DNA of 64,000 nt, from positions 1-64,000 of the IMG/VR virus record IMGVR_UViG_3300047557_002984. The stretch is one strand, 5' to 3'. Position 1 is the stretch's first letter. Each line of letters begins with the position of its first letter. Of this stretch, positions 1 to 35,484 are shown piece by piece. The stretch comes from a virus. The position numbers were made by a program, and so were the translations under genes. The notes under the pieces are model-generated. The model had not been told where the DNA came from, made no database searches, and saw only the letters and a list, made by a program, of their open reading frames with translations.

Positions 1-3000
1 CCCCTGTGCCGCCCCCCCCGCCGCCTCCCGGTGAGAACAACGACGAAATGACCAGCCGCGCCAGGCTTTTCAAAATATCGCCAACCAAATCCTTGAAGAA
101 ACCCAGCTTTTTCGTAAGCGAATCAATGCCCTTATCCACCACGCCAAGAACTTTATCCTTGAAGCTGGCACCGATGCGCTCAAAGGATTCTGCCAGCGTT
201 TCCGCCTGCGAGCGGAAGCCCTTAAAGAAGCCTTCAAGCGGGGTTAGTTCTGCGCCCAGCGTGCGAAGCTGCTCAATCTGGGCTTGCAATTGGGTAATCT
301 TGAGCGGGTCAACCTCAGCCTGTTGCTGTACCTCAAGTGCGCGGATCAGTTCGTCGCGGTATTGCCGCTGAATCGCCAGCGTTGCTTGCTTGGCTTCGGC
401 TTCGTTGAGAATGCCCAGCGTCAGCAAGTTCTGAATGCGCAATTCTTCAACCCGCAAATTAGCATCCTGCTGGCTGTATTCCAGCGAGGCCCGTTGCGCC
501 GCGAGCAAGGTTTCCCGCGCGCGAAGCTGCTCCGGCGTGAGCTTTTCAGCCGTGCGCAATTGCTCGGAAATATTATCTGTCGCGGGGAGCGCAAGCCCCT
601 GTGTCTCTTTCAGCAGCTTGTTGCGCGCTTCGGTTGCGGCCTTTACAAACTCGCGCTGATTGGCGATCTCAACCTCTGTTAGTTCGCGTGTCTGGATGGC
701 CAAATCCGCCCGCAATTTGATCAACTGCTCTTCAAGGCGAATCTTTTCCGGCGTGCCCGCTTTCGCTGCCGCCAAGGATTTCTCCGTTGCGGCAATTTCC
801 TGCTGCGTCAGGCCGATGGTCAGCGTTGTGTTCTCGCGCTCAAGGCGAATTTTCTCATCATAGAACTGGCTCAACGTCAGCTTGCGGTCTTCATAAAACG
901 CCTTCACCGCATCCAGTTCGCGCTTATTGGCATCAATTGCAAGGCGTGTTTGCTGCTCTAATGCTTCTCTCTCAAACTGCAATTGCGCTTGTCGGAGTGC
1001 GCGCACCTTGGATGCTGCGCCCTCCGTTTCTGCTTTCAGGCCCGCAGCTTTCGGCTTATTGCGCGCCTCTGCGATCTTGTCACGGAAGTTTACAGATGCG
1101 GCAGCCAGATCGGCGTCTGTGATGATGTCCGCATCCAAGTTTCGCCCTTCCTGTACCCGCTGCGCGGCGTCGCGTCCGGCTTGTCGCTGTTGCGATTTCA
1201 ACCCCAGAAAACTGCGCGCATTGCCGACCAATCCGCTCAAGAGGCTTGATGTGGACGGAAACGCGGCAGCCAACCCGCCGACGATTCCGTTAGCAAGGTT
1301 GCCACCGAGCGCTTGCCCGATTTCGCGCGCTAGCCCGGTTTTACTCAGCAGGCTGCGAAAGCCGGTCGTGATCGTGTCGCTCAGGTTGACAATGGCGCGC
1401 GCGCTCAGGGTAATCACGGCGTCCCACGCTTCGCGCCACGCCTTACTAAGTGAATCCCTGAACCCTTGAATATCGCCGGAAAGCAGATTTAACCCGGCGC
1501 GCACCAATTCACGCACCACGTCTAACGACTCACGCACCACATCCTTGAAGGTTTCCCATTGACCGCGCCAAATGCTGCCAAAAATATCGCTCCATACTTC
1601 CAGCGATTTCACCAGCGCATCCAGTACCGGCCCGAAGATGCGGTTAATGTCCGGGGCGATTTCGCGCCAGAACGTCACCACATCGCCGAATTGCTCCCGT
1701 AGAAAACTGAACGCATCGGCGGCAATGCTGCGAATATTCCCAAAGTCCGTCGCAAAGGCGACCGCAAACCCGGACAACGCAGCGGTTGCAGCAAGGAGGA
1801 TCGGCGCTAAACCGCCGAACACGCCCGCCAATCCACCAGACGCCCCCGCGCCGGTCGCTCCGGCGAATACCGTTAGCAGATTGCCGAACGCCCCCACGGT
1901 TTGCACCAGGGAGCCGAACGCAATCACTAGCGGGCCAATCGCGGCAGCCAAAACACCAACCGCCACGATGATCTGGCGCGTGCTATCCGGCAGTTCGGCG
2001 AAGGCTTTAGAGAGACGCTCAATAATCGGAATGGCTTTTTCGACCAGCGGCGCAAGCGTTTGAATAATGGCAAGGCCGAGCGGGCGCAGCGACACAAGCA
2101 CGCGATCACGCAATTTCTCAAACTGCGTGCCCAGCGATTCTGTAATTTTGGCAAGCTTCGGATTGTTCTCTGCCGCCGCCGCAAACGCGGCAAAAAAGGC
2201 ATCCGTCGTGGTCAATCCTAGCTTCTGCGCCGCTTCACGGATCGCCTTACCATTGATCGGGCTGTCCACGTTGAATAGATTTTTGATGATCTCCCCGGCC
2301 AGCGGCGATTGGCCTATAAGCTCTTTTAAGTCGGTGCGCTCAAAGTTTTGCGTGACCAGCTGCACAAGGTTCTGTGAGAACCGTTGCGGGTCAGCAAGAG
2401 GCGCAACAGCATTTAGCCGTCCAATGGCAGGCAATAGGCGGTCAATTGTCCCTACGGAAACGTTTGCGACACGCAATTGCGCGTCCAGCGTTGCGGCAAG
2501 ATTCGTCGTCAGGCCGGGTGTCTTCTGCGACAAGGCCACCAAGGCGGCAAATCGTTTTTCCGCATTCTCCGCGCTGCCGGTCAGCGCTTTTAGCACGTTG
2601 ACCTGTTGATCAATCTGAATTGTGCTTTGCACTGCACTACGGCCAAGGCCAATGATGCCTGCGGATAGACCGCTCAGGAAGTAACCCGCCTGCTGGATGG
2701 ATTCGCCCGCCTCGCGCACCGTGGATGAGTACCGCTTGAAGAAGCCGAGGACGCTATCCGGTGGCGCGGATCGCCGAATTGCCCGCTCCTGCGCCTGTGC
2801 AAACCGCAGGGCATCGCGCTCCGCTTGAATCGCGGCCCGTTCGCGCAACAAGGCGCGCTGCGCATTCGCCTTGGCTTCGATCTCAACCAGGCGCTGTTGG
2901 TGTTTGCGCTCCGCGTCCTCGCTCTTTGTGTGGCGCGCCGTTGGCGAAAGAATATTGTCTAATTGGCTGCGCAGGCGTTGCGCATTGCGTAAACCTTCCG

Positions 3001-3160
3001 TGATGCCCGCTGAGAGGGCATCCCCGATCTTTTTTCCAAGTGATTGCGCATCCGGCACGGCAGAAGAAAGCGCGGATTGCAGGGCTTGCCGGATTTCGCC
3101 TTTTTTGCGGGTGATGTCACCCGCATCCAGCGCAATTTTGATCACAATCGCTTCAGCCAT
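1..3160 (-). CDS. Tail tape measure protein (runs off the left edge)
   Basis: Start read manually as ATG at 3160: MAEAIVIKIALDAGDITRKKGEIRQALQSALSS... It is Ala/Gln-rich and helical and follows the tail chaperones. It is absent from the ORF track, probably because no stop lies in the window; I did not translate it end to end. Confidence 0.85.
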   Translation of the reverse strand, partial: MAEAIVIKIALDAGDITRKKGEIRQALQSALSSAVPDAQSLGKKIGDALSAGITEGLRNAQRLRSQLDNILSPTARHTKSEDAERKHQQRLVEIEAKANAQRALLRERAAIQAERDALRFAQAQERAIRRSAPPDSVLGFFKRYSSTVREAGESIQQAGYFLSGLSAGIIGLGRSAVQSTIQIDQQVNVLKALTGSAENAEKRFAALVALSQKTPGLTTNLAATLDAQLRVANVSVGTIDRLLPAIGRLNAVAPLADPQRFSQNLVQLVTQNFERTDLKELIGQSPLAGEIIKNLFNVDSPINGKAIREAAQKLGLTTTDAFFAAFAAAAENNPKLAKITESLGTQFEKLRDRVLVSLRPLGLAIIQTLAPLVEKAIPIIERLSKAFAELPDSTRQIIVAVGVLAAAIGPLVIAFGSLVQTVGAFGNLLTVFAGATGAGASGGLAGVFGGLAPILLAATAALSGFAVAFATDFGNIRSIAADAFSFLREQFGDVVTFWREIAPDINRIFGPVLDALVKSLEVWSDIFGSIWRGQWETFKDVVRESLDVVRELVRAGLNLLSGDIQGFRDSLSKAWREAWDAVITLSARAIVNLSDTITTGFRSLLSKTGLAREIGQALGGNLANGIVGGLAAAFPSTSSLLSGLVGNARSFLGLKSQQRQAGRDAAQRVQEGRNLDADIITDADLAAASVNFRDKIAEARNKPKAAGLKAETEGAASKVRALRQAQLQFEREALEQQTRLAIDANKRELDAVKAFYEDRKLTLSQFYDEKIRLERENTTLTIGLTQQEIAATEKSLAAAKAGTPEKIRLEEQLIKLRADLAIQTRELTEVEIANQREFVKAATEARNKLLKETQGLALPATDNISEQLRTAEKLTPEQLRARETLLAAQRASLEYSQQDANLRVEELRIQNLLTLGILNEAEAKQATLAIQRQYRDELIRALEVQQQAEVDPLKITQLQAQIEQLRTLGAELTPLEGFFKGFRSQAETLAESFERIGASFKDKVLGVVDKGIDSLTKKLGFFKDLVGDILKSLARLVISSLFSPGGGGGGGTG

Positions 3161-3216
3161 TGCCTATCCGTCCGCCTTCCCCTGATAATTCCCGCCCCCA
3201 AACCAAGGAGGCATCC

Positions 3217-3705: not shown

Positions 3706-4157
3706 CGCCCGCGCCGGATCGCATCTAATCGCGCAGCTGATTGCTCGACCCCGTGTTGCTGCGCCTTCGTCTGTTCTTCGCGCGCATCCGCACGGTTGAG
3801 CGCCGCTTGGTACGCCCGGAGGCAGGCCCAATCCGCGACGGGTAGCGCGTCCGGGTAAGAGAACGTCGCGCCCGCCGCGTGCAAGCCCGCTAAGTCGTAG
3901 GCTCGCGTGATTACGGCCAGCAATTCGGGCGGTTCCGTGCCCGGCTTTGTGGGCAAAAGTTCGCAGCCCTTCACATTGCAAAGATCAAGAACGGGAAGCT
4001 CGCTGTCTTCGGCGCGCCATAGTGCAATCCGCCCGTTTTCCTCGCATGGGCCTTGCCCTGGGCACGCATCCTTCAATTGGCGGCGCTGGTAAACGTCGTT
4101 TGCGAGGAACTCCGTTAGCCGCCGCGTCAGTCCAAGACGGACGCGCTGATTTTTCCC
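3702..4157 (-). CDS. Tail assembly chaperone -1 frameshift extension (gpGT-like)
   Basis: The -1 frame ORF GKNQRVRLGLTRRL... begins at the slippery site and has no RBS of its own. Confidence 0.75.
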   Translation of the reverse strand, partial: GKNQRVRLGLTRRLTEFLANDVYQRRQLKDACPGQGPCEENGRIALWRAEDSELPVLDLCNVKGCELLPTKPGTEPPELLAVITRAYDLAGLHAAGATFSYPDALPVADWACLRAYQAALNRADAREEQTKAQQHGVEQSAARLDAIRRGR

Positions 4158-31860: not shown

Positions 31861-32487
31861 TCATTGCTGGCTGCCTCCATTCCATCGCGGCCAAGTCACA
31901 CCAATGCGCTGCGCGAAGTCTTCCGCTTGCACCGGGCCAACAAAGCTCAGGCTTTGCACGTTGAATCGATCCCGCAACGCCAGCTTGACCGCTTCCGTGG
32001 TAGCCGTCGGTTCAAGCTGCAATTTCGCCAGCAACTCCGGGTTGTGCTGGATTTGGCATTGTCCGAAAAGATGCTGCCAGTATGCGCCGTGCGGGCCGCG
32101 CTCTTTTTTGGCTTTTTCCGCCAATGCGCCATCGCCCTCCATCAGGATTTCCAAGCGCAACGCCCGGTCGTCGTAGCCGATCAGCTTGGCCGCGTTGAAG
32201 ATTTCCGTTTCCGGCACATCAAACTTCACCTTGGCGCGCTCACGCGTGAAGACCAAGCTTGAGTTGATTTGCGCCAGGGCTGCACCAAATTCCGCAACGG
32301 GCTCCGCAGTATCCGCCGCAACGTAAAAACGCAGCCTGAGCCGTTTTTGCTTCAGCGCGAGCAGTGCCATCGCCGCGCCTCGGTCGGCATTGGTTGGCTT
32401 TGACCAGATTTCGATGCGCGCCGCATCGCCAAATTGTAACGCGTGCGCGGTCGGGGCAACCTCTGCCCAGAAAATCACGGATGTCAT
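31861..32487 (-). CDS. Hypothetical protein
   Basis: Coupled to the DUF5131 gene. Confidence 0.65.
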   Translation of the reverse strand: MTSVIFWAEVAPTAHALQFGDAARIEIWSKPTNADRGAAMALLALKQKRLRLRFYVAADTAEPVAEFGAALAQINSSLVFTRERAKVKFDVPETEIFNAAKLIGYDDRALRLEILMEGDGALAEKAKKERGPHGAYWQHLFGQCQIQHNPELLAKLQLEPTATTEAVKLALRDRFNVQSLSFVGPVQAEDFAQRIGVTWPRWNGGSQQ

Positions 32488-33522
32488 TTACGCCGCCTCC
32501 TTCAGTCTCGGCATTTCGTTCCATTCGACGCCATCAAGCAGGCGGCCAGCGGCCTTCTTGCCGACGCGGTACATCACTTGGCCAAGGATATTTTCGTATT
32601 TGCTGTAGGTGCCTTCGTGGAACTTCCACGTTCCGTTTTCATCAAAGATGCCGCGCTTGTAGTCGCTATCGTAATAACTCAGGATCGGCTCTCGCTTCAT
32701 TACCGGATGCTCAGCCGGAACCCATTCCCCGTTTTGCTTGAAGAAAAACGGCACACCCGCCGCTTGGCACTGATCGCGTAAACTTCGCGCCCAATCCGGG
32801 TGCATTGGACGCGCGCCGGGGCCAGACTCGCCGCCAACGATCACCCAATCAACGCGAGACGTATTTGCGCCTTCGGGATAGTTTTCATTTGCAGGCTTCC
32901 ACCCGTGGAGCACGTCCCATCGCTCAGGCCCAACTTTGGTTAAATTTACCGGCCCTAGCAGCGGCTCGCACGACAAGAAGCGAACACGCGCCGGAACCTT
33001 CAGCAAGTCAGGAATGCGCTTGTCGACCTGCTCTTGGTTCTCCACGGTTGTGCCGAGCCACACATTCTCCGGCGGCTCACCCCAGCCATCCCACGTCGGC
33101 GGGTACAACCTTTTCAAGTTCTCAGGCCGCTTTGTCAGCAGGAGCCAGTCCAAATGCGGCGTGTCATCGATCAGGCGAAAAAGCCTCTGACGTGGCGAGC
33201 GGAGTTCGGGTCGATCCTCAAACACGTCGGCCAGAGATGCGCAAAACACGCGCCGACGCTCGCCCGCCTTGGCTGCCGCCTGATTCCACGCGAGGGGTTG
33301 CCGCCAACCACGCTCACTAGCAACCTGCCTCTCCGCATTCGCGCCCCAGAGTTCACGCCCCACAGCGCGCGCAATGCGCACGGGTGGCTGATGCTCGGCA
33401 TAACAATGAGCACAAGCCGCCGATACCTTGGCGCAACCAATCCACGGATTAAAAGTGTAGCCAGGCACCCAAGTTCCATCTGGTTGTTGATATGAAGTCC
33501 ATTCAATTTTTGTTAATCCCAT
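32488..33522 (-). CDS. Phage Gp37/Gp68 (DUF5131) family protein
   Basis: TKIEWT, FNPWIGC.KVS..C.HCYA, VFCASLADVF, LLTKRP, SCEPLL, VGGESG and FFKQ motifs. Confidence 0.93.
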   Translation of the reverse strand: MGLTKIEWTSYQQPDGTWVPGYTFNPWIGCAKVSAACAHCYAEHQPPVRIARAVGRELWGANAERQVASERGWRQPLAWNQAAAKAGERRRVFCASLADVFEDRPELRSPRQRLFRLIDDTPHLDWLLLTKRPENLKRLYPPTWDGWGEPPENVWLGTTVENQEQVDKRIPDLLKVPARVRFLSCEPLLGPVNLTKVGPERWDVLHGWKPANENYPEGANTSRVDWVIVGGESGPGARPMHPDWARSLRDQCQAAGVPFFFKQNGEWVPAEHPVMKREPILSYYDSDYKRGIFDENGTWKFHEGTYSKYENILGQVMYRVGKKAAGRLLDGVEWNEMPRLKEAA

Positions 33523-34066
33523 GTCACCGCTCCTATGTTATAATTTCGTGGTACGAATTAACCTTCAGCTAGCACGTAAATCTTTATGGCTCAAACAAAG
33601 GGGGAGGCCATCCGCTTTCAAAGGACGATCTCACACAATAGAAGCCAAGCTTCAGATGAGCGCAGCGGCAAAATTGAGGGGATCGAATCGCACCGGCAAG
33701 CCTCACACTGCCGAAACGAAAGCGCGATTGAGTCAGATCACGCGAGAGCGTGGCGCAAGAGGCGAGAACCACTACGCCTATAAACACGGCCAACACCAAC
33801 GCAATCTGAGCGAGCGTCGAACAATTGAATACGCCAACTGGCGCGCCGCCGTTTTTAGCCGAGACTCTTACACCTGCCAGCATTGCGGCGACAGCAAGGG
33901 CGGCAACCTGAATGCACATCACATAAAAACTTTTGCTGATTTCCCAGAGCTTCGCTACGAACTTAGCAACGGCATTACGCTTTGCCAGGACTGCCATGAG
34001 AAAGTTCATCTGAAGCCAATTCCCAAAGCGAAGTGTCGTCGAAAAAAACACGCGCTGCCTACTTGA
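33521..34066 (+). CDS. NUMOD3 + HNH homing endonuclease
   Basis: GRSHT.EAK..MS and GKPHT.ETK..LS repeats; RD.YTC..CG, AHHI, NGITLC..CH...H. Start uncertain. Confidence 0.9.
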   Translation: MSPLLCYNFVVRINLQLARKSLWLKQRGRPSAFKGRSHTIEAKLQMSAAAKLRGSNRTGKPHTAETKARLSQITRERGARGENHYAYKHGQHQRNLSERRTIEYANWRAAVFSRDSYTCQHCGDSKGGNLNAHHIKTFADFPELRYELSNGITLCQDCHEKVHLKPIPKAKCRRKKHALPT

Positions 34067-34105
34067 CGTGTGATGCGCCCACTCGATTTTTGTATTTTCG
34101 CCCAT
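34067..34105 (-). pseudogene. Orphaned original 5' end of the DUF5131 gene
   Basis: GGAGG RBS plus MGENTKIEWAHHT, ending exactly at the HNH stop codon. Confidence 0.8.
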
Positions 34106-34307
34106 CTCACTTCCTCCAAAATTCAATTTTTCCGCCGTGGCGCATTCGTAAGATTCGCAATCCGGCCTGCGATTGCCCGACGTGCGCACGCCGGTTGCTC
34201 TTCCCAAGAGAACTGATTTATAGAGTGGCTCAGTCTAGGCGAGTAAGTGATTGCCAGATTTTGATTTCTCTATATACAGTCCAAAGAACATCACGGCGGG
34301 TAAATCC

Positions 34308-35210
34308 CTAAAACTCCTGACAGGCGCGCATAATCGCCCGCCCGATAACTTCCGCAACTTGCGGCACGATGGCGTTGCCGAGCGCCTTCAAAGAGGCCAC
34401 TCGATGCCGTCGAGCCAGTCGCTCGGAAAGCCCTGCAGCTGACTCACCCACCGGTAATTTAACAATGCGCGGCTGCTCCCATTCGTATTGAGGCTGTCCG
34501 GGTCGGGCTGGCCATTGATAACCACCGAAGCCGGAAGACAAGGCGACTTCCGCGCCTGCGCTGCGGGTTCCGTTCCGCTGTCTTTCCAGTCTCGCGTTGA
34601 GGGCGTCGGCCACAGCCGCGCAATTTGCGTTTCCAGATTCGGAAACCTGTTTGCCGCGTTCGCTATCGCATCGTCGGTTATTCCCGCTGCCATCGCGGAG
34701 CAATTTCGCGGAGTAGCCCACGAAGAAAATTCGCTCTCTTCGCTGCGATGCGCCAACGTCTTCAGCAGCCAACTCGACGGGGAACAATTCGTAACCTCTA
34801 GCCGCAAACTCACGCGCAATCCATTCGCTGAATTGCATTCCTTCAACGCAAAGTGAAGTGATTCCGCCAGGATTCTCCGCCAACACCCACACGGGTTTGA
34901 CTTCAGACACCAAGCGCAGAAAGTCAGGCCAGAGCCAGCGATGATCGGCGGCCCCTTTTCGCTTTCCGGCGACGCTGGCGGGCTGGCAGGGAACCCCGCC
35001 GCAAAGAAGGTCAACTGTTCCGCAGTGCTGGGCGACTTGAGCGCCCGTGAGCGTTTTGACATCATTCCACCTCCAAACATCTGGCCAATGCTTTGCTAAT
35101 ACTTTCTGGCAAAATGGCTCAATTTCCACCTGGCCAACGCAACGCATTCCCGCGCGCTCAAGGCCAAGATCGAAGCCACCCACCCCCGCAAAGAGAGATA
35201 AAAACCTCAT
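34308..35210 (-). CDS. C5 cytosine DNA methyltransferase, alpha chain
   Basis: FAGVGG, GVPCQ, ENP, Q.RERIF and LGNAIVP motifs; motif IX is missing. Confidence 0.92.
   Translation of the reverse strand: MRFLSLFAGVGGFDLGLERAGMRCVGQVEIEPFCQKVLAKHWPDVWRWNDVKTLTGAQVAQHCGTVDLLCGGVPCQPASVAGKRKGAADHRWLWPDFLRLVSEVKPVWVLAENPGGITSLCVEGMQFSEWIAREFAARGYELFPVELAAEDVGASQRRERIFFVGYSAKLLRDGSGNNRRCDSERGKQVSESGNANCAAVADALNARLERQRNGTRSAGAEVALSSGFGGYQWPARPGQPQYEWEQPRIVKLPVGESAAGLSERLARRHRVASLKALGNAIVPQVAEVIGRAIMRACQEF
34388..35065 (-). CDS. C5 MTase beta chain in an overlapping frame
   Basis: Internal GGAGGT RBS; WATP/WPTP repeats and motif IX-like LN.RWV.QLQGFP.DW. Confidence 0.75.
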   Translation of the reverse strand: MMSKRSRALKSPSTAEQLTFFAAGFPASPPASPESEKGPPIIAGSGLTFCAWCLKSNPCGCWRRILAESLHFALKECNSANGLRVSLRLEVTNCSPSSWLLKTLAHRSEESEFSSWATPRNCSAMAAGITDDAIANAANRFPNLETQIARLWPTPSTRDWKDSGTEPAAQARKSPCLPASVVINGQPDPDSLNTNGSSRALLNYRWVSQLQGFPSDWLDGIEWPL

Positions 35211-35214
35211 ACGC

Positions 35215-35484
35215 CTAAAACTCCGGTTGCCAGAACGTGCGCTCAACCGCGCGGCTGTCCGTGCCGCCATCGCCCGCGCTGGTGAATGCCGCTTGCTGCG
35301 CTTCGGTCAATTGCCGATTACTGGTGCGCTTTTGGCCCTTCTTGGCTGCCAGCGTCGCCAGCGTGCGCGGCTGCTTGCCCATCCGTTTGCGCATCATTGT
35401 CGTGAAATTGCGCGTTTCGCGGATCGTGGCATCGAAGGCCACGAGCACAGGATCATTGCTTAAATCAAGTTTCTTTCTTGCCAT
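35215..35484 (-). CDS. Basic hypothetical protein
   Basis: GGAGG RBS before MARKK. Confidence 0.6.
   Translation of the reverse strand: MARKKLDLSNDPVLVAFDATIRETRNFTTMMRKRMGKQPRTLATLAAKKGQKRTSNRQLTEAQQAAFTSAGDGGTDSRAVERTFWQPEF

Follow-up and report, generated by a model that had tools for sequence, protein, structure and literature searches.

Within a 64,000-nucleotide stretch of viral DNA (hereafter the window), we identified what is best explained as one copy of a mobile, splice-free homing cassette specific for the 5' ends of DUF5131 genes. In the absence of cleavage, splicing or translation data, we assign this reading a probability of roughly 0.8. Read in the direction of the DUF5131 gene, the locus consists of a DUF5131 stub, an antisense NUMOD3-HNH gene and a complete DUF5131 gene with a second start. 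Its parts are the following:

34112-34117, minus strand: original Shine-Dalgarno sequence GGAGGA of the resident DUF5131 gene, 6 nt 5' of the stub ATG (read from the sequence)
34067-34105, minus strand: stub of 13 codons, MGENTKIEWAHHT, from the resident short-form DUF5131 gene, with its ATG at 34105
33584-34105, minus strand: read-through ORF in the stub frame, 173 codons plus stop (TAA at 33584-33586)
33521-34066, plus strand: NUMOD3-HNH homing endonuclease gene, longest ORF, 181 codons (from Pfam, homologues and alignment)
33586-33604, plus strand: ATG reading MAQTKGE, with a GGGGG run at 33600-33604 (sequence; its reading as a scar is inferred)
33536-33544, plus strand: perfect extended -10 box, TGTTATAAT, directed into the HNH gene (read from the sequence; function inferred)
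33523-33585, minus strand: AT-rich spacer, GC 0.40, which holds the new Shine-Dalgarno sequence AGGAG (33530-33534)
33454-33522, minus strand: element-borne replacement N-terminus of 23 codons, long form MGLTKIEWTSYQQPDGTWVPGYT (GC3 0.26)
32488-33453, minus strand: resident body of the DUF5131 gene (Gp37/Gp68, radical-SAM-like) from FNPWIGC onwards (PF07505; GC3 0.655)

The last stub codon (34067-34069) directly adjoins the TGA stop of the plus-strand ORF. A first-pass annotation of the window had already described an RBS-bearing stub abutting the stop codon of an antisense NUMOD3-HNH gene, and its coordinates and sequences proved correct. That the stub ends at this point holds for homology, but not for the reading frame, which runs on antisense. 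On the other side of the insert, the DUF5131 gene (32488-33522, minus strand; a 344-aa product that matches PF07505 from end to end, E = 1e-82) restarts as described with an AT-rich N-terminus, MGLTKIEWTSYQQPDGTWVPGYTFNPWIGC, from an ATG at 33522 that has its own ribosome-binding site upstream. The new N-terminus has a foreign composition, with a GC3 of 0.26 compared to 0.655 in the gene body and 0.615 in the stub (binomial P = 1.3e-4); the stub resembles the body. We infer that the stub was left behind by insertion into a resident short-form DUF5131 gene and that it constitutes the left homology arm. Removal of positions 33454-34066 indeed restores a normal allele: the 13 residues of the stub followed by FNPWIGC form the start of database protein P0108, MGENTKIEWAHHTFNPWIGC. 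The N-terminus had also been called 'alternative', but it is not unusual: the long form is natural in the family and occurs in 48 of 118 ordinary homologues. We considered the long form as a signature of the element and rejected this idea, which is contradicted by these ordinary homologues and by six element-bearing loci with short-form replacement N-termini.

The layout is not a product of chance, since it recurs in many independent loci. When the same architecture was looked for elsewhere, at least 15 further loci were found in phages and prophages of several bacterial phyla. All seven of the nearest HNH relatives in IMG/VR are accompanied by a divergently oriented DUF5131 gene and a short-form stub abutting the HNH stop; further examples come from metagenomes (L095, L096) and from genomes of Hymenobacter, Pyrinomonadaceae, Bacteroidota, Acidocella, Caulobacterales and Microcoleus. 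Distant lineages carry the stub at the identical codon, and each locus has its own start codon and a full N-terminus after the HNH gene. Judged from these relatives, the cassette comprises the antisense HNH gene and a replacement 5' end, i.e. a ribosome-binding site, a start codon and N-terminal codons. The new ribosome-binding site of the window lies in the short AT-rich spacer beside the HNH start, while in some relatives both start codons overlap; in L010, L011 and L096, the HNH ORF takes up the whole insert between the stub junction and the new ATG, which it overlaps. Decayed copies exist as well: L007 carries an in-frame stop in the N-terminal domain and L094 a degenerate stub. GenBank phages yielded no close relative of the window locus, of the L010-type element or of this HNH clade, and single-protein scans of IMG/VR returned only distant HNH matches and few DUF5131 relatives.

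Evidence for mobility comes from sister elements. In one prophage group (L174, L175, L176, L199 and L213), the HNH proteins are 97-100% identical at the amino acid level, while the DUF5131 genes are only 63-83% identical and the upstream flanks are unrelated. The HNH gene of these sister elements occupies 8 of 151 related DUF5131 loci. Alignment with HNH-free alleles revealed precise empty sites: L313 and L243 have the upstream flank of L199 (95%) and exactly its first 36 nt of the gene, and diverge thereafter, and the stubs of relatives are identical to HNH-free alleles in 36 of 36 nt. By these alignments, the exact empty site lies 36 nt into the DUF5131 gene. On the opposite side, identity between L176 and the HNH-free L183 is 33-80% within the ~230 bp at the start of the gene, then rises to 97-100%; the corresponding switch in identity lies ~205 bp into the gene for L199/L318 and ~445 bp for L174/L179. 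A tract of 200-450 bp from the 5' end of the gene was imported together with the nuclease. The earlier proposal that the element carries its own 5' end is supported in this way, with an imported tract that can extend beyond the first codons. The sister elements show two hallmarks of homing endonucleases, presence/absence polymorphism at one precise site and co-conversion with discordance between element and host gene. Their HNH proteins are 44-61% identical to that of the window; mobility of the window copy itself is not demonstrated, because its phage lacks close relatives.

Among 136 empty alleles, no DNA of the DUF5131 gene is better conserved than the target, which agrees with the suggested insertion into a conserved motif. 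Alteration of the cut site by the element-borne copy, likewise suggested before, was found in two forms: L010-type loci carry a recoded copy (GATCAT ACC TTC TCG CCA TGG instead of GACCAC ACG TTC AAC CCT TGG), and in the window the copy is interrupted by an 11-codon insertion. Both fit self-immunity of the occupied allele, for which cleavage data are lacking.

The HNH ORF of the window matches Pfam HNH (PF01844, E = 5e-8) and NUMOD3 (PF07460, 24.2 bits against a cut-off of 20.4). In an alignment of 27 sequences, C119, C122, H133, H134, N150, C155, C158, H159 and H163 are invariant; the window protein holds all invariant HNH and zinc-binding residues, and its 159-codon HNH body is intact. Its closest HNH proteins are P0121-P0127, with 61-65% identity. 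Co-location of P0139 with P0094 and of P0155 with P0030 is only suspected. The 5' end is less clear. Homology to relatives begins near 33600, the N-terminal domain of longer relatives is missing, and the ATG at 33586 (MAQTKGE) resembles the conserved MAQTKEG start of relatives, yet is shifted by one base relative to the reading frame of the HNH body. The region from this ATG to the end of the GGGGG run is probably the scar of a frameshift or of a deletion of the N-terminal domain, and the true start codon remains uncertain. We saw no Shine-Dalgarno sequence before the ATG at 33521 and no clear ribosome-binding site for the HNH gene; a simple two-hexamer promoter scan of the spacer gave nothing useful and did not report the extended -10 box. 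Because the conserved ATG is out of frame and a clear ribosome-binding site is lacking, the window copy, perhaps degenerate at its 5' end, may be inactive.

A second property of the cassette concerns the strand opposite the nuclease. In the window, the stub frame runs codon-aligned antisense through the HNH gene for 173 codons, with 159 codons of the HNH stretch open, and stops 61 nt before the new DUF5131 ATG. An antisense frame open over 112-231 codons is present in 14 of 16 divergent loci, but in only 6 of 145 unlinked HNH relatives (Fisher P = 9e-14), and co-oriented members of the same HNH clade have merely 11-43 open codons. A rough look at the six unlinked loci with long open frames (L024/L104, L029, L030, L074 and L156) revealed no stub/duplicate layout. 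In a codon-usage test, the probability of zero antisense stops was 2e-9 for L333 (31% GC), 2e-5 for L327, 0.002 for L006 and 0.004 for L095. The HNH genes avoid the codons TTA, CTA and TCA, and the antisense frame is apparently under selection. This claim rests on the low-GC loci and the controls, as the open frame of GC-rich loci is not significant individually (P = 0.12-0.57); closed frames occur in two lineages (L094/L330-332 and L103). The stop of the stub ORF is found between -19 and +61 nt from the new start in 11 of 13 open loci, and it overlaps this start in L010, L011 and L096, as ATGGCTGA in the first two. Stub and restart do not form one read-through fusion frame, a possibility that we rejected: they are in frame in L008 only, its close relative L009 differs by 1 nt, and the frame relation of stub and restart is not conserved among loci. 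The purpose of the open frame is likely translational coupling or avoidance of polarity, as inferred from these patterns. Coupling is not strictly needed in the window, since the restarted gene has a good ribosome-binding site and starts 61 nt past the stop of the stub ORF.

From these observations, we propose the following course of events. The nuclease would cut or nick HNH-free alleles at the conserved coding sequence ...IEW-x-DH|T-FNPW-x-GC, and an occupied allele would then serve as the template from which repair copies the cassette. To the right, a variable tract of the gene's 5' end would be co-converted; to the left, repair would resolve within the first 36-39 nt of the gene and leave the stub. 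The host DUF5131 protein would then be translated from the new start, and the altered target copy, or the N-terminus longer by 11 codons in the window, would protect the occupied allele against re-cutting. The old start codon would remain in use: as the frame is kept stop-free across the antisense HNH gene, ribosomes of the host would pass across the insert and end translation at the new start or close to it, which may couple translation and shield the transcript from polarity. A more general formulation, in which a widespread class of antisense homing endonuclease genes obeys a codon code (no TTA, CTA or TCA) that lets the original ribosomes read through before termination-reinitiation at a parasite-carried duplicate start, is put forward tentatively, at slightly less than even odds.

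Could the insert instead be a self-splicing intron or another spliced element with an antisense endonuclease ORF, the stub being spliced to FNPWIGC and the second N-terminus being incidental? Its excision would give a perfect short-form gene, and some nuclear group I introns carry antisense endonuclease genes. Nevertheless, this reading can hardly be upheld: no Rfam intron match was obtained at E values up to 10 in positions 32400-35300 of the window and none above the gathering score in 10 related loci, and L010, L011 and L096 leave no room for a non-coding RNA core because the HNH ORF fills the insert. Moreover, every locus has its own start and full N-terminus in an unconserved frame relation to the stub, and as much as 200-450 bp of coding sequence is exchanged by co-conversion. 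The splice-free nature of the element, as originally proposed, is thus supported by its recurrence, by near-identical HNH genes in divergent alleles and by the lack of a ribozyme match. An intein was also rejected: the stub frame, which closes at 33584, is not the frame of the restarted gene, and the 173-aa product lacks a Pfam domain. It is highly improbable that the HNH protein is a working partner of DUF5131 rather than a selfish gene, with the stub as a relic of a one-off rearrangement. Co-oriented HNH-DUF5131 pairs in the same HNH clade (L097, L091, L328 and L334) would suit such a partnership, but an HNH gene at just 8 of 151 related loci, near-identical HNH genes in divergent alleles, sharp identity boundaries, exact empty sites and a stub at the same codon in distant lineages do not.

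That antisense stops are strongly avoided even in loci of 31-42% GC, and that the ORF has an ATG and a good ribosome-binding site, could also indicate that the antisense ORF is a functional overlapping gene, e.g. for a regulator or a nuclease immunity factor, so that ribosome passage is not the point. We regard this as unlikely. The 173-aa product matches no Pfam family, its N-terminus is merely the host stub, length (142-234 aa) and C-terminal end vary with the HNH gene, and the stop tracks the new DUF5131 start; for the ShiLan domain, whose host frame is also open across an HNH gene, no separate function was proposed (PMC11855218). A final alternative is compatible with the homing cassette and concerns only the present state of the window copy, which may be a fixed, decaying relic whose HNH protein is no longer made or active, so that only the repaired host gene matters. 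This is a serious possibility, although we would not bet on it. The displaced MAQTK start at the GGGGG run, the absent N-terminal domain, the missing Shine-Dalgarno sequence ahead of 33521 and the decay in L007 and L094 argue for it; the intact HNH body with every invariant residue and the still open antisense frame argue against it, and neither an upstream in-frame ATG or GTG nor a misassembled run of Gs can be ruled out.

Terminus-duplicating endonuclease cassettes as such are already known from fungal mitochondria, where mORFs form gene hybrids, e.g. in atp6 of Allomyces macrogynus (PMC3630166, citing Paquin et al. 1994) and in atp6, atp9, cox2 and nad3 of Glomus (PMC3630166). They too are intron-less endonuclease genes within a coding region that import a foreign copy of a gene terminus, the native terminus remains as an unused fragment, and the native piece matches close relatives while the inserted piece does not (PMC3630166). 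The DUF5131 cassette meets this description at the 5' rather than the 3' terminus: fungal mORFs replace the 3' (C-terminal) end on the same strand, whereas the DUF5131 cassette replaces the 5' end and is antisense. Fungal mORF endonucleases belong to the LAGLIDADG or GIY-YIG type, that of the DUF5131 cassette to the NUMOD3-HNH type. Unlike fungal mORFs, the cassette supplies a new ribosome-binding site and start codon, and the old frame is open across the nuclease.

Intronless homing is established for the free-standing Seg and Mob endonucleases of phage T4 (PMC2988022), including the mobA / gene 39-gene 60 cassette (bioRxiv 10.1101/2022.08.31.505936). HNH members among these endonucleases nick (PMC2988022), and homing endonuclease genes are located at recombination boundaries (PMC10448857). 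As with Seg and Mob, a free-standing endonuclease gene lies beside or within its target and would spread via break repair with co-conversion of flanking coding sequence; for the DUF5131 HNH family, homing is inferred from comparative data alone. T4 elements lie between genes or divide one gene into two parts that both function, unlike the DUF5131 cassette, and none is described with a dead duplicated stub and a host frame open through an antisense endonuclease gene. The start/stop overlap of T4 mobE with nrdA suggests translational coupling for expression of the endonuclease, not for a restart of the host gene. Hidden HNH endonucleases that lie out of frame within methylase genes of mycobacteriophages, namely the ShiLan domain and the Pacc40 insertion (PMC11855218), share with the DUF5131 cassette an HNH gene inside a phage gene, without intron or intein, and a host frame that is stop-free across the insertion. 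There, host gene and HNH gene share one strand but differ in frame, and the host protein is believed to be made in one piece that includes an additional loop (PMC11855218). The DUF5131 cassette departs from this arrangement of same-strand HNH gene and continuous host protein: its HNH gene is antisense, the host frame closes behind the insert, and the protein begins anew from a duplicated N-terminus.

For survival inside genes, homing endonucleases are believed to rely mainly on introns or inteins. The family described here shows another, compact solution that occurs in phages and prophages of several bacterial phyla and combines a spare gene start with an old frame kept open. If the proposed class with its codon code is real, homing elements would have a third way of residing in coding sequence, and the class may lie behind the almost random exchange of long and short N-termini among DUF5131 genes. 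The family offers a natural system, with occupied as well as empty alleles and with known junctions and co-conversion tracts, to study how much homology homing needs (36 nt on one side), immunity by target recoding, and possible selection for translation across an antisense gene. Annotation is affected too: the stubs and the antisense ORFs of 140-230 aa will be mistaken for genes, and DUF5131 genes may have chimeric 5' ends.

The cassette lies near the start of the DUF5131 gene and combines an antisense NUMOD3-HNH gene with a replacement DUF5131 5' end. From the sequence and Pfam matches, the locus in the window is composed as follows:

34112-34117, minus: Shine-Dalgarno sequence GGAGGA, rated good, before the stub ATG
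34067-34105, minus: stub, the first 13 codons of the resident short-form gene; ATG at 34105, peptide MGENTKIEWAHHT
33521-34066, plus: NUMOD3-HNH ORF (Pfam HNH E 5e-8; NUMOD3 24.2 bits, cut-off 20.4)
33536-33544: perfect extended -10 box TGTTATAAT, between the ATGs 33521 and 33586
ATG 33522, minus: DUF5131 gene of 344 codons with AGGAG ahead (33530-33534); DUF5131/PF07505 E 1e-82 over the whole profile

Read on the other strand, the TCA codon that follows the stub is the TGA stop of the HNH ORF, and the restarted DUF5131 protein reads MGLTKIEWTSYQQPDGTWVPGYT before it reaches FNPWIGC. This bears out the first-pass annotation, which had described a stub with a ribosome-binding site ending at the stop of an antisense NUMOD3-HNH gene and a DUF5131 gene restarting with its own alternative N-terminus. 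Its further claim that removal of the insert restores a normal gene also held, as the start of the database homologue P0108, MGENTKIEWAHHTFNPWIGC, equals the stub and its continuation exactly. Both genes are single-copy in the 74-kb IMG/VR viral contig containing the window.

Comparison with HNH-free DUF5131 alleles and a search for the same architecture elsewhere, both proposed in the first-pass annotation, yielded exact empty sites for related loci as well as viral, metagenome and genome loci of the same layout. With an alignment of HNH homologues as query, IMG/VR, JGI metagenomes and GTDB genomes were scanned. In all seven nearest viral relatives (L005-L011; HNH identity 44-61%), DUF5131 divergently adjoins the HNH start, and a short-form stub, M..N.KIEW.DHT, ends at the HNH stop codon on the far side (7/7). 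The layout was also found in the metagenome loci L095 and L096, in Hymenobacter polaris (L325), a Pyrinomonadaceae MAG (L327), Acidocella (L335) and, with a frameshifted stub, a Bacteroidota MAG (L333), while decayed versions occur in Microcoleus (L094, L330-332) and L103. A Caulobacterales MAG (L329) carries a small Cys-rich ORF between the stub MGTFTSISWTDHTFNPEARHV and HNH; this ORF (MCNACRFLCC...CDHCPCEAC..., ~2990-3200, minus) continues in the same frame into the antisense HNH. Most loci have the stub/HNH junction behind the DH(T) codons; L007, L095, L096 and L327 have it a few codons further on, behind FNP(W). In other loci, members of the same HNH clade lie directly upstream of DUF5131 in the same orientation, and there is no stub (L097, 2671-4096; L091, 2298-3852; L328; L334). 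Their 3' ends overlap the DUF5131 start, and one of these four loci comes from a Nitrosotalea (archaeal) MAG.

The DUF5131 proteins of L011 and L008, used as queries against IMG/VR, retrieved 151 related prophage loci, and the HNH gene is present in eight. Five of these eight (L174, the same locus as L011; L175; L176, the same locus as L010; L199; L213) share HNH proteins that are 97-100% identical, while their DUF5131 genes are only 63-83% identical. In a five-way DNA alignment, only L176 and L213 have related upstream flanks; similarity starts exactly at the stub ATG, and 97-100% identity extends across HNH and 130-300 bp of the gene before decaying. The HNH-free loci L313 and L243 have an upstream flank 95% like that of L199 and share the first 36 nt with its stub; thereafter they read ACG TTC AAC CCT TGG, compared to GCG CTA ATT CAG in L199, where the HNH C-terminus and stop are read in antisense. 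On the right-hand side, identity between L176 and the HNH-free L183 is 33-80% up to ~230 bp into the gene and 97-100% over all the rest of it; the switch lies ~205 bp into the gene for L199/L318 and ~445 bp for L174/L179. These switches delimit co-conversion tracts of variable length, which are expected from break repair (PMC2988022). The upstream flanks vary from one background to another, so recombination on the left must be resolved inside the 36-39-nt stub, which we infer would act as the left homology arm. The occupied loci are mosaics in which one HNH-free relative matches the upstream side and another the gene body (L174/L190, L176/L183, L199/L313 and L318), placing the cassette at a recombination boundary, as is the case for other phage nuclease genes (PMC10448857). 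The target, ATCGAaTGGaccGACCACACgTTCAAcCCgTGG, is the most conserved DNA of the DUF5131 gene in 136 empty alleles, and the copy borne by the element is recoded (GATCAT ACC TTC TCG CCA TGG).

How the interrupted gene is expressed could be explained by splicing, by fusion or by a restart. Rfam searches of the window region, run up to E 10, gave no intron match, and neither did those of ten related loci. Moreover, in L010, L011 and L096 the HNH ORF takes up the whole insert between the stub junction and a shared CATG, at which the HNH and new DUF5131 ATGs overlap on opposite strands, leaving no room for a ribozyme. The first-pass claim of a splice-free element is thus supported, albeit without RNA data. 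The frame of the restart relative to that of the stub varies between loci; as far as sequence comparison can tell, restart rather than fusion or splicing is therefore the working solution. The start overlap is a CATG palindrome, often CCATGG (window 33520-33523; L010/L011 near 3781-3784; L096 near 634-640). With no intergenic DNA there, an HNH promoter would have to be inside the DUF5131 coding sequence; the candidate -10 box of the window, located in a spacer, is an exception.

The N-terminus occurs in two forms among the 120 best DUF5131 homologues: a short form, IEW-xxHT-FNPW (8-residue spacing), and a long form, IEW-TxxxxPDGTxxPGYT-FNPW (19-residue spacing), the latter in 48 of 118 classifiable sequences. 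In the window, the stub is short and the replacement N-terminus long. The latter is foreign to this genome by composition (GC3 0.26, compared to 0.655 in the gene body and 0.615 in the stub; P 1.3e-4). The long form is not the mark of the element, because replacement N-termini are long in the window, L007, L095 and L335 and short in L005, L006, L008-L011, L096, L327 and L333. On a FastTree phylogeny of 118 protein bodies, calculated without the N-terminus, a minimum of 32 changes is required to explain the long and short states (37.6 +/- 2.5 after label shuffling), which are therefore distributed almost randomly. This scatter fits, and may trace, frequent 5'-end replacement in the DUF5131 family; it could instead reflect a poorly resolved tree. 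Some DUF5131 proteins (P0103, P0109 and one near 1754 in L334) lack IEW and start with unrelated residues up to RFNPWRGC; they may result from 5' insertions that brought no duplicate.

The codons of the stub frame and those of HNH are in register in all stub-bearing loci, so antisense stops can arise only from the HNH codons TTA, CTA and TCA. The frame stays open for 159 codons in the window and 112-231 in stub-bearing relatives, compared to 11-43 in co-oriented DUF5131-linked relatives and a median of 12 in 145 HNH relatives not adjoining DUF5131, six of which reach 100 (open frame in 14/16 divergent loci versus 6/145; Fisher P 9e-14). We also calculated the probability of zero antisense stops from the codon usage of each locus's own DUF5131 gene. 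It was 2e-9 for L333 (31% GC), where 15 of 18 Leu codons in the neighbour gene are TTA/CTA and 6 of its 12 Ser codons are TCA and HNH uses none of these, 2e-5 for L327, 0.002 for L006 and 0.004 for L095; GC-rich loci were not significant alone (0.12-0.57). The 181-codon ORF of the window has four such codons (3.9 expected), all within its first 22, and none in the 159 under the stub ORF. Selection keeping the host's old frame open across HNH is thus statistically supported.

The stop of the stub ORF lies near the new start.

Gap from the stub-ORF stop to the new DUF5131 start (nt; negative values are overlaps)
L335: -19
L010, L011, L096: -8 (ATGGCTGA in L010/L011, ATGGGTGA in L096)
L327: +1
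L333: +14
L008: +24
L009: +25
L095: +47
L005: +53
Window: +61
L006: +112
L007: +344

In the two closed-frame lineages (L094 type, L103), gaps of roughly 700 nt contain AT-rich, promoter-like spacers ahead of a strong RBS. Where the restarted gene needs upstream transcription and translation, ribosomes from the old ATG would have to cross the insert. They would then terminate and reinitiate at the new start, and Rho-type polarity would be avoided; this coupling is an inference.

Terminus-duplicating endonuclease cassettes are established at gene 3' ends in fungal mitochondria (PMC3630166 and the Allomyces work that it cites). Free-standing phage homing endonuclease genes spread with co-conversion and are located at exchange boundaries (PMC2988022, PMC10448857), and the mobA cassette of T4 includes a part of gene 60 (bioRxiv 10.1101/2022.08.31.505936). 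For a host frame kept open across HNH, the nearest precedent is the ShiLan insertion (PMC11855218); in contrast to the present loci, HNH shares the strand of its host gene there, whose protein is taken to be continuous. New are a defined, widespread DUF5131-specific family with pairs of occupied and empty alleles, the antisense orientation with overlapping divergent starts, and statistically supported selection for an original host frame that stays free of stops throughout the parasite.

The HNH body of the window retains all residues invariant in the homologue alignment and lacks the N-terminal domain of its relatives. No RBS precedes ATG 33521 in the window sequence. ATG 33586 (plus) reads MAQTKGE, resembling the relatives' conserved MAQTKEG start, and its frame is offset by one base from that of the HNH body at a GGGGG run (33600-33604). 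This copy may be a decaying pseudogene, use an unconventional start or reflect an assembly error. L007 looks like a decaying copy; near 2716-3060, its HNH N-terminal domain MAQTKEGALKIAAKKAGLSIT is truncated by an in-frame stop. Upstream of the window stub, a C5 cytosine methylase gene (34308-35270, minus) matches the Pfam profile (324 positions) over positions 1-165 only, and a 230-codon ORF (34388-35080) is nested in another frame.
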